Origin: Nanoarchaeum equitans Kin4-M
GTDB taxonomy: Archaea; Nanobdellota; Nanobdellia; Nanobdellales; Nanoarchaeaceae
Length of the DNA stretch: 32,000 nucleotides
Reading direction: 5' to 3'
NCBI GenBank assembly: GCA_000008085.1
Contig: AE017199.1
Span: forward strand, 30,001-62,000
Position 1 is the first letter of the stretch. Every line of letters begins with the position of its first letter. The notes under the pieces were generated by a model. It did no database searches, was not told the DNA's origin, and saw nothing but the letters and a program-made list of their open reading frames with translations. Of this stretch, positions 31,066-32,000 are shown in pieces. The translations under genes and the position numbers were made by a program.

Positions 31066-31805
31066 AGTTTTTTCCTATTTGCCTCTAATTGCTTTATTTC
31101 ATATCCCATAAACTCTGCAGCAGTTATAAAATTGTCTCTAAAATATTTCCTATAGTTTATATCCCTTAATAAATGGTGGTCTATTATTACAGTTTTTATA
31201 TTAGATAACAAATCCAATGTTTTTTCTATTATTGGGTCATATTTAATGTAAGTTGGAGGCCCAGAAATAAAAACTATTTTAGGATCATAATCTAATATTT
31301 TTTTCATATCCTCTATATTTAAGCATTGGGAATCACTTGCAAAAATAAAATCCTTAATCCTAATTGCCAAAACTTTGGAGAATTTCGAATTCTTATAGCC
31401 ATGCCATAGAGTAAAGGTTTCAATATCTTCATCAAATTTATATTCGTCAATTAATATAGGTTTTACTTCTTTGTAAAAAAGTTTTCCCCTTTGTTGTTGA
31501 GAATAATTCATATTAACGAAATTCTTAGCATAGACCGTTTTAGTTTTTAGTATGTCTATTATTGGATCTCCTGGCCTAGGAACATGGTCATAATGGTAAT
31601 GGGTAATAAATACTGTATCTACTTTTTTTAATTCCTCTATTATTCTTTTTTTGCCCTCTTCCATAGCTTTTAATTCTATTGGGTGTGGGGGCAAGCCATA
31701 TCTCTTTGGACCAACCGCAATAGATGGATCTATCATAATATTATCTATAACAGTACTCATACTTCTTGTGGAAAAAGAATCTGCGTTAATTATTTTTATT
31801 TTCAT
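31050..31805 (-). CDS. metallo-beta-lactamase-fold protein
   Basis: FITHYHYDH (HxHxDH). Confidence 0.6.
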
Positions 31806-32000
31806 ATTCCTTGGCTTTAACCCAATTGCCTTTGCTTAAAACTAAATGGTTTGCACTTAATGTTATCCCATTTATTTCATATAAATCGGTCTCGGTTTCA
31901 TGTTTTATTATTGAATATACTTTAACCCATCTTTCTCCATCATATACATACAAATCTGGAGGGAAAGCATAATGTTTCTCCCCTATTTGAAAACCGGCAT
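31786..32000 (-). CDS. polB: 3' end of an ORF entering from beyond the window; terminates within an intein N-terminal (Hint) fragment, consistent with the split-intein-bearing N-part of family B DNA polymerase
   Basis: My translation of the minus strand is [70 protein letters not shown]. It is not in the ORF track because there is no start in the window. LSANH matches the intein block B TxxH pattern, and the stop follows 17 codons later. Confidence 0.6.

Follow-up and report, generated by a model that had tools for sequence, protein, structure and literature searches.

The open reading frame at the edge of the window

At the right-hand end of the window (the whole stretch of 32,000 nucleotides of Nanoarchaeum equitans Kin4-M DNA that was analysed) an open reading frame is read on the minus strand. 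Between 31998 and 31786 it comprises 70 codons and a terminal TAA, and the frame is open up to the edge of the window; bases 31999-32000 are part of the codon preceding the 70-codon frame. The G+C content is about 31% across the whole window. The features of the region are these.

31786..32000, minus strand: 3′ end of NEQ068, i.e. the last 70 codons of a 98-aa N-intein (residues 29-98) and the stop, from the translation and from identity with a PDB entry
31900..31902, minus strand: codon CAT, which encodes intein His61 (in Ser1/oxyester inteins the histidine of the "NX motif"), from its counted position
31840..31869, minus strand: intein block B/N3 segment, 10 residues, from the translation
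31786..31788, minus strand: TAA stop of the N-intein, 19 residues past the block B histidine; the same end is found in four assemblies, L001-L004
31050..31805, minus strand: MBL-fold protein of 251 aa, downstream of the polymerase; called in four assemblies and not part of the polymerase

Block B is formed by S76-A-N-H79 at window positions 31857-31846, with the His79 codon at 31846-31848, and fits the pattern (T/S)xxH. An earlier note on this DNA, made from the sequence alone, had read the segment as a TxxH block B. The histidine is present as proposed, but the residue at position -3 is serine (S-A-N-H), and the threonine of that reading lies at -5. The protein string given in the earlier note occurs exactly in the 70-residue translation; the stop, which it had placed 17 codons after the histidine, lies 19 residues beyond it. 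The C-terminus of NEQ068 is ...ENKNN, and neither an endonuclease domain nor a C-terminal HN block precedes the stop, either in the ORF or in the Pfam search, as had been proposed.

The MBL-fold ORF matches Pfam Lactamase_B with 26.6 bits (cut-off 22.7, E = 6.9e-06). Its ATG is at 31805 on the minus strand, and its first 20 nt (31786-31805) are shared with the polymerase ORF, in a different frame; the earlier note had correctly placed the start 20 nt before the polymerase stop. The MBL-fold ORF in turn overlaps an ORF of 206 aa, membrane-like in character, by 16 nt (31050-31065, minus strand). These successive overlaps on the minus strand fit a tightly packed row of genes that are probably co-transcribed. 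A scan for sigma-70 promoters between 31000 and 32000 gave no more sites than were found in shuffled sequences; the sigma-70 model is not applicable to archaea.

Some other features of the window may be recorded here. A homologue of Cdc6/Orc1 with Cdc6_lid, Cdc6_C and AAA domains is encoded at 20213-21247 (plus strand); an archaeal replication origin often adjoins a Cdc6/Orc1 gene. The 5S rRNA gene at 26698-26818 (plus strand) stands alone, and the window contains neither a 16S nor a 23S gene. A match to a C/D-box sRNA (Rfam sR45; score 42.8 bits, gathering threshold 40) lies at 16924-16978 (minus strand), directly after the ORF at 15858-16934. The ORF of 408 aa at 9873-11099 (minus strand) has Toprim and Topoisom_bac domains, the latter covering profile positions 2-274 out of 411 alone. 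It is a truncated N-terminal half of topoisomerase I, and matches the intein-less split gene NEQ045/NEQ324 (PMC3655853).

Identity with NEQ068

The 70 residues encoded in the window are identical at all 70 positions to residues 29-98 of PDB chain 5OXW_A (E = 1.7e-45), and also to 5OXX_A and 5OXZ_A, annotated as "NEQ068" (NeqN). This match is far beyond chance. A homologue search with the same 70 residues returned a sole match, a 105-aa crystallisation construct that reads FKVIYGD-SIMDTEIEV... at its start. With the flanking sequence described below added, the identity with 5OXW_A extends over the complete N-intein (98 of 98 residues).

We conclude, with a probability of about 0.97, that the ORF at the edge of the window is the end of N. 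equitans NEQ068, encoding the N-terminal half of the family B DNA polymerase (PolB) and the N-fragment of a split intein, with NEQ528 as its partner, and that the two products are trans-spliced. The split intein of NEQ068 and NEQ528 is already known in full detail, reportedly since the genome paper of Waters et al. in 2003. The earlier note had assigned the ORF to the end of the N-terminal polymerase/N-intein gene, which is borne out by the PDB identity together with the PolB half found in the flank. It had also taken the split polymerase as a fact of the literature, and the same gene pair is indeed described in PMC549080, PMC2677866 and PMC3655853; in the last of these a table of split genes lists "DNA polymerase I NEQ 068-528". 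With 70 codons to go on, the earlier note named the organism, the gene and the mechanism correctly.

The polymerase gene beyond the window

The flanking sequence was obtained by an exact look-up of the MBL-fold neighbour, which led to four independent assemblies (L001-L004, from Logan, JGI and ENA). Wherever they overlap it, all four match the window at every base; the overlap reaches 7913 nt (in L001) without a mismatch, and L001-L003 extend 9805 nt to the right of the window.

The extended ORF is 669 aa in length (654 aa in one gene call), and is 100% identical to a protein record of 676 aa (P0006) that has an earlier start. The start of the polymerase is thus called variously, giving 676, 669 or 654 aa (position 8011 in L001, 8056 in L002). 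The exonuclease and palm motifs of PolB that had been anticipated to the right of the window are found in the 669-aa ORF of L001. The exonuclease motifs are Exo I (FDIEV), Exo II (YNGDNFD) and Exo III (YNLKDAELTY), and the polymerase motifs are motif A (DFASLYPS) and motif B (KIIINATYG).

The extein ends in ...EEGFKVIYGD and is followed directly by SIMDTEIEVIENG..., so that the junction reads FKVIYGD/SIMDTEIEV. The block A nucleophile, Ser1 of SIMDTEIEV, lies 28 codons past the edge of the window (L001 9724); a Cys or Ser at the start of block A had been expected about 30 codons beyond the edge. In the N-terminal half the Pfam domain DNA_pol_B_exo1 is complete, while DNA_pol_B is covered at profile positions 13-239 of 453 alone. 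When aligned to the PolB of Pyrococcus furiosus (2JGU, 775 aa) the extein stops at Y-I-D541, which is the first aspartate of motif C. The partial coverage of DNA_pol_B, the end of the alignment at D541 and the complete identity of the N-intein show that the polymerase is cut mid-way. The position of the break corresponds to intein insertion site III, as described for NEQ068/NEQ528 (PMC549080).

The partner NEQ528 and the intein-free polymerase

The earlier note had looked to a separately encoded C-intein ending in HN. At the level of protein this is provided by the PDB chain of NEQ528, in which the HN is followed by Thr+1. The C-intein MRYLGKKRVILYDLSTESGKFYVNGLVLHN is identical at 30 of 30 positions to 5OXX_B and 5OXZ_B, a chain of 33 aa that ends in TDS and is annotated "NEQ528 [Nanoarchaeum equitans Kin4-M]". 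When this 33-mer was used as a query with 7 filler residues added, the sole match was the NEQ528 PDB chain.

A record of 801 aa (P0129), belonging to the 90% identity cluster of NEQ068, corresponds to the intein-free polymerase. It reads ...KVIYGDTDSLFISG..., i.e. ...FKVIYGD-TDSLFISGDKDKV..., with a YGD-TDS junction, and DNA_pol_B is covered at positions 13-452. A C-terminal half rebuilt from the C-intein and the last 223 residues of P0129 covers DNA_pol_B positions 229-452, which is complementary to the N-terminal half.

A C-terminal part of PolB is encoded neither in the window nor in the 9.8 kb to the right of it. Back-translated degenerate patterns aimed at the NEQ528 gene gave no match in the window, nor in genome or metagenome contigs, the two collections apparently lacking the source genome. 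As a control, the degenerate-pattern method recovers a locus that is present on L001. An exact look-up of the 676-aa record P0006, made during the search for the NEQ528 gene, returned no record.

Profile and fold of the intein

Pfam gave no match either to the 70-aa fragment or to the 98-aa N-intein. The profile Intein_splicing (PF14890) aligned with the fused N- and C-inteins at E = 0.0049 with 17.1 bits, which is below the cut-off of 35.8. For the 105-aa construct AlphaFold gave a model with a pLDDT of 70, i.e. moderate confidence. In fold this model is closest to 5OXZ, 5OXX and 5OXW ("NeqN/NeqC complex from Nanoarchaeum equitans"); the archaeal mini-inteins of Pho PolII, RadA and TFIIB come next, with probabilities of up to 0.8. 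The N-intein is thus predicted by the model to adopt the Hint fold. The structure of the Neq Pol intein is attributed to Gordo et al. 2018 in PMC10189870.

Mechanism of splicing

NEQ068 encodes the 578 N-terminal residues of PolB, comprising the N-terminal domain, the 3′-5′ exonuclease and the palm and fingers as far as the first aspartate of motif C (YGD); the 98-aa N-fragment of the Neq Pol mini-intein follows directly. In the mechanism that we envisage, NEQ528, a second gene elsewhere, would provide the 30-aa C-fragment (ending in HN) and the remaining 223 residues of the polymerase, beginning with TDS. The two intein fragments would associate after translation into a single Hint fold, leading to protein trans-splicing. 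An N-O acyl shift at Ser1 would generate an oxyester, the N-extein would be moved onto Thr+1, the terminal asparagine of the C-intein would cyclise, and an O-N shift would then create the peptide bond. Motif C (YGDTDS) would be rebuilt in this way, generating an active polymerase of 801 aa. Since YGDTDS, the metal-binding motif C, is restored by splicing, neither half should be an active polymerase alone.

Established here are the identity of the sequence, how the N-terminal half is organised, the existence and sequences of the C-intein and of the intein-free product, and that the catalytic residues are conserved in the relatives. Trans-splicing of the two Neq Pol halves to give the ligated polymerase is credited to Choi et al. 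2006 (J Mol Biol 356:1093) by PMC2677866 and PMC10189870. The Neq Pol intein requires 50-70 °C, is cysteine-less and uses Ser1/Thr+1 oxyester chemistry (PMC10189870). According to the same article, His61 was proposed by Gordo et al. 2018 (Cell Chem Biol 25:871) to aid the first N-O acyl shift.

Related polymerases with the same break

A stand-alone protein of 256 aa (P0004) was obtained by an HMMER search with the 33-mer, and derives from metagenome contigs of up to 60 kb. It comprises a C-intein (...KKKEIVYDLSTESGLFSINGLVLHN) followed by TDSLFIHG... and the C-terminal part of PolB, and is 76% identical to the C-terminal half of N. equitans. A locus search with this C-terminal half returned ordinary PolBs alone, with 25-42% identity.

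The query used in the search for relatives was an artificial concatenation of the N-terminal half from N. equitans with the C-terminal half from this relative, made to find both at once. Two proteins, P0007 (673 aa) and P0008 (668 aa), are 63-64% identical to NEQ068 and have the same break after YGD. Apart from these two, the close matches of the joined query were either intact PolBs of about 800 aa or longer versions, at about 1250 aa, that contain contiguous LAGLIDADG inteins. The genes of the two relatives are located as follows.

L017 10001-12022 (NCBI MAG GCA_054016815.1): N-terminal half of a relative's PolB, with a Ser1 N-intein
L018 3017-5023 (hydrothermal-vent metagenome ERR1679394): N-terminal half of a relative's PolB, with a Ser1 N-intein

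Both genes are internal to their contigs, and their neighbours are unrelated or on the opposite strand, and differ from those in N. equitans. No C-terminal half was seen near the N-terminal half in either contig. We also note that L017 encodes at 5003-7900 (minus strand) an RtcB RNA ligase of 965 aa with a contiguous intein (Intein_splicing and LAGLIDADG_3).

On comparing P0007 and P0008 with N. equitans the exteins are about 66% identical and the N-inteins about 50% identical. The N-inteins of the two relatives are 108 and 106 aa in length, extending 8-10 residues further at the C-terminus than that of N. equitans. Ser1, His61 and the block B His79 are invariant in all three (the histidines being H639 and H657 in P0006), and block B in the two relatives has the canonical form, T-A-D-H and T-G-D-H. 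In the Yellowstone nanoarchaeon Nst1 the gene is unsplit ("Nst 417, not split in Nst1"; PMC3655853).

P0007 and P0008 carry the same broken N-terminal half, and the break in PolB is therefore common to a small clade. We regard it as evenly balanced whether the split predates N. equitans, has been kept under selection and is common to a clade of uncultured relatives, a finding that may not have been described before. The shared break is a small addition to the evolutionary history of the split intein, and for protein engineering the inteins of the relatives may widen the choice of thermophilic split inteins that lack cysteine.

Alternative explanations

The intein fragment might instead be a decayed, inactive remnant, with the two halves of the polymerase forming a non-covalent enzyme of two subunits as in Methanothermobacter thermautotrophicus. 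Split PolB genes that lack an intein do exist (Kelman et al. 1999, as cited in PMC2677866), and the Pfam intein model scored below its cut-off for the fused inteins. Yet Ser1, His61 and His79 remain invariant over three lineages in which the inteins are only about 50% identical, and the C-intein retains its terminal HN and Thr+1. Taken with the experimental trans-splicing ascribed to Choi et al. 2006 in PMC2677866 and PMC10189870, this makes inactivity of the intein very improbable.

Even less probable is that the stop arises from an error of assembly or a frameshift in a contiguous, intein-containing PolB gene. Nothing was found in support of this, although contiguous PolB inteins with LAGLIDADG domains occur in many relatives, in proteins of about 1250 aa. 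Against it, the four independent assemblies agree with the window base for base, an MBL-fold protein is encoded downstream, and a C-terminal part of PolB is lacking from the window and from the 9.8 kb to its right. Moreover the relatives have the same stop, located inside long contigs. Trans-splicing of the products of NEQ068 and NEQ528 is contradicted neither by the lack of pattern matches for the NEQ528 gene, nor by the sub-threshold Pfam score, nor by the moderate pLDDT of the model.

Comparison with known split polymerases and inteins

The system is that of the Neq Pol split mini-intein of strain Kin4-M (5OXW, 5OXX and 5OXZ). The N-intein, the YGD/S junction and the C-intein partner are identical, and there is no difference between them.

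The DnaE split inteins of cyanobacteria (Ssp and Npu) resemble NEQ068/NEQ528 in that two halves of the catalytic subunit of a replicative polymerase are separately encoded and become trans-spliced (PMC2677866). They differ in that the host protein is a bacterial family C polymerase, and in that splicing is mesophilic. The chemistry is also different, DnaE using Cys1/Cys+1 with a thioester and Neq using Ser1/Thr+1 with an oxyester (PMC10189870).

The contiguous PolB inteins at site III (pol-c) of Thermococcales and Mimivirus are inserted at the same point of motif C (PMC549080). By contrast with the N. equitans pair these are made as a single polypeptide, usually include a LAGLIDADG homing endonuclease domain, and splice in cis. 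The PolB of M. thermautotrophicus is likewise encoded by two genes (PMC2677866), but it lacks an intein, and its halves come together without being ligated.
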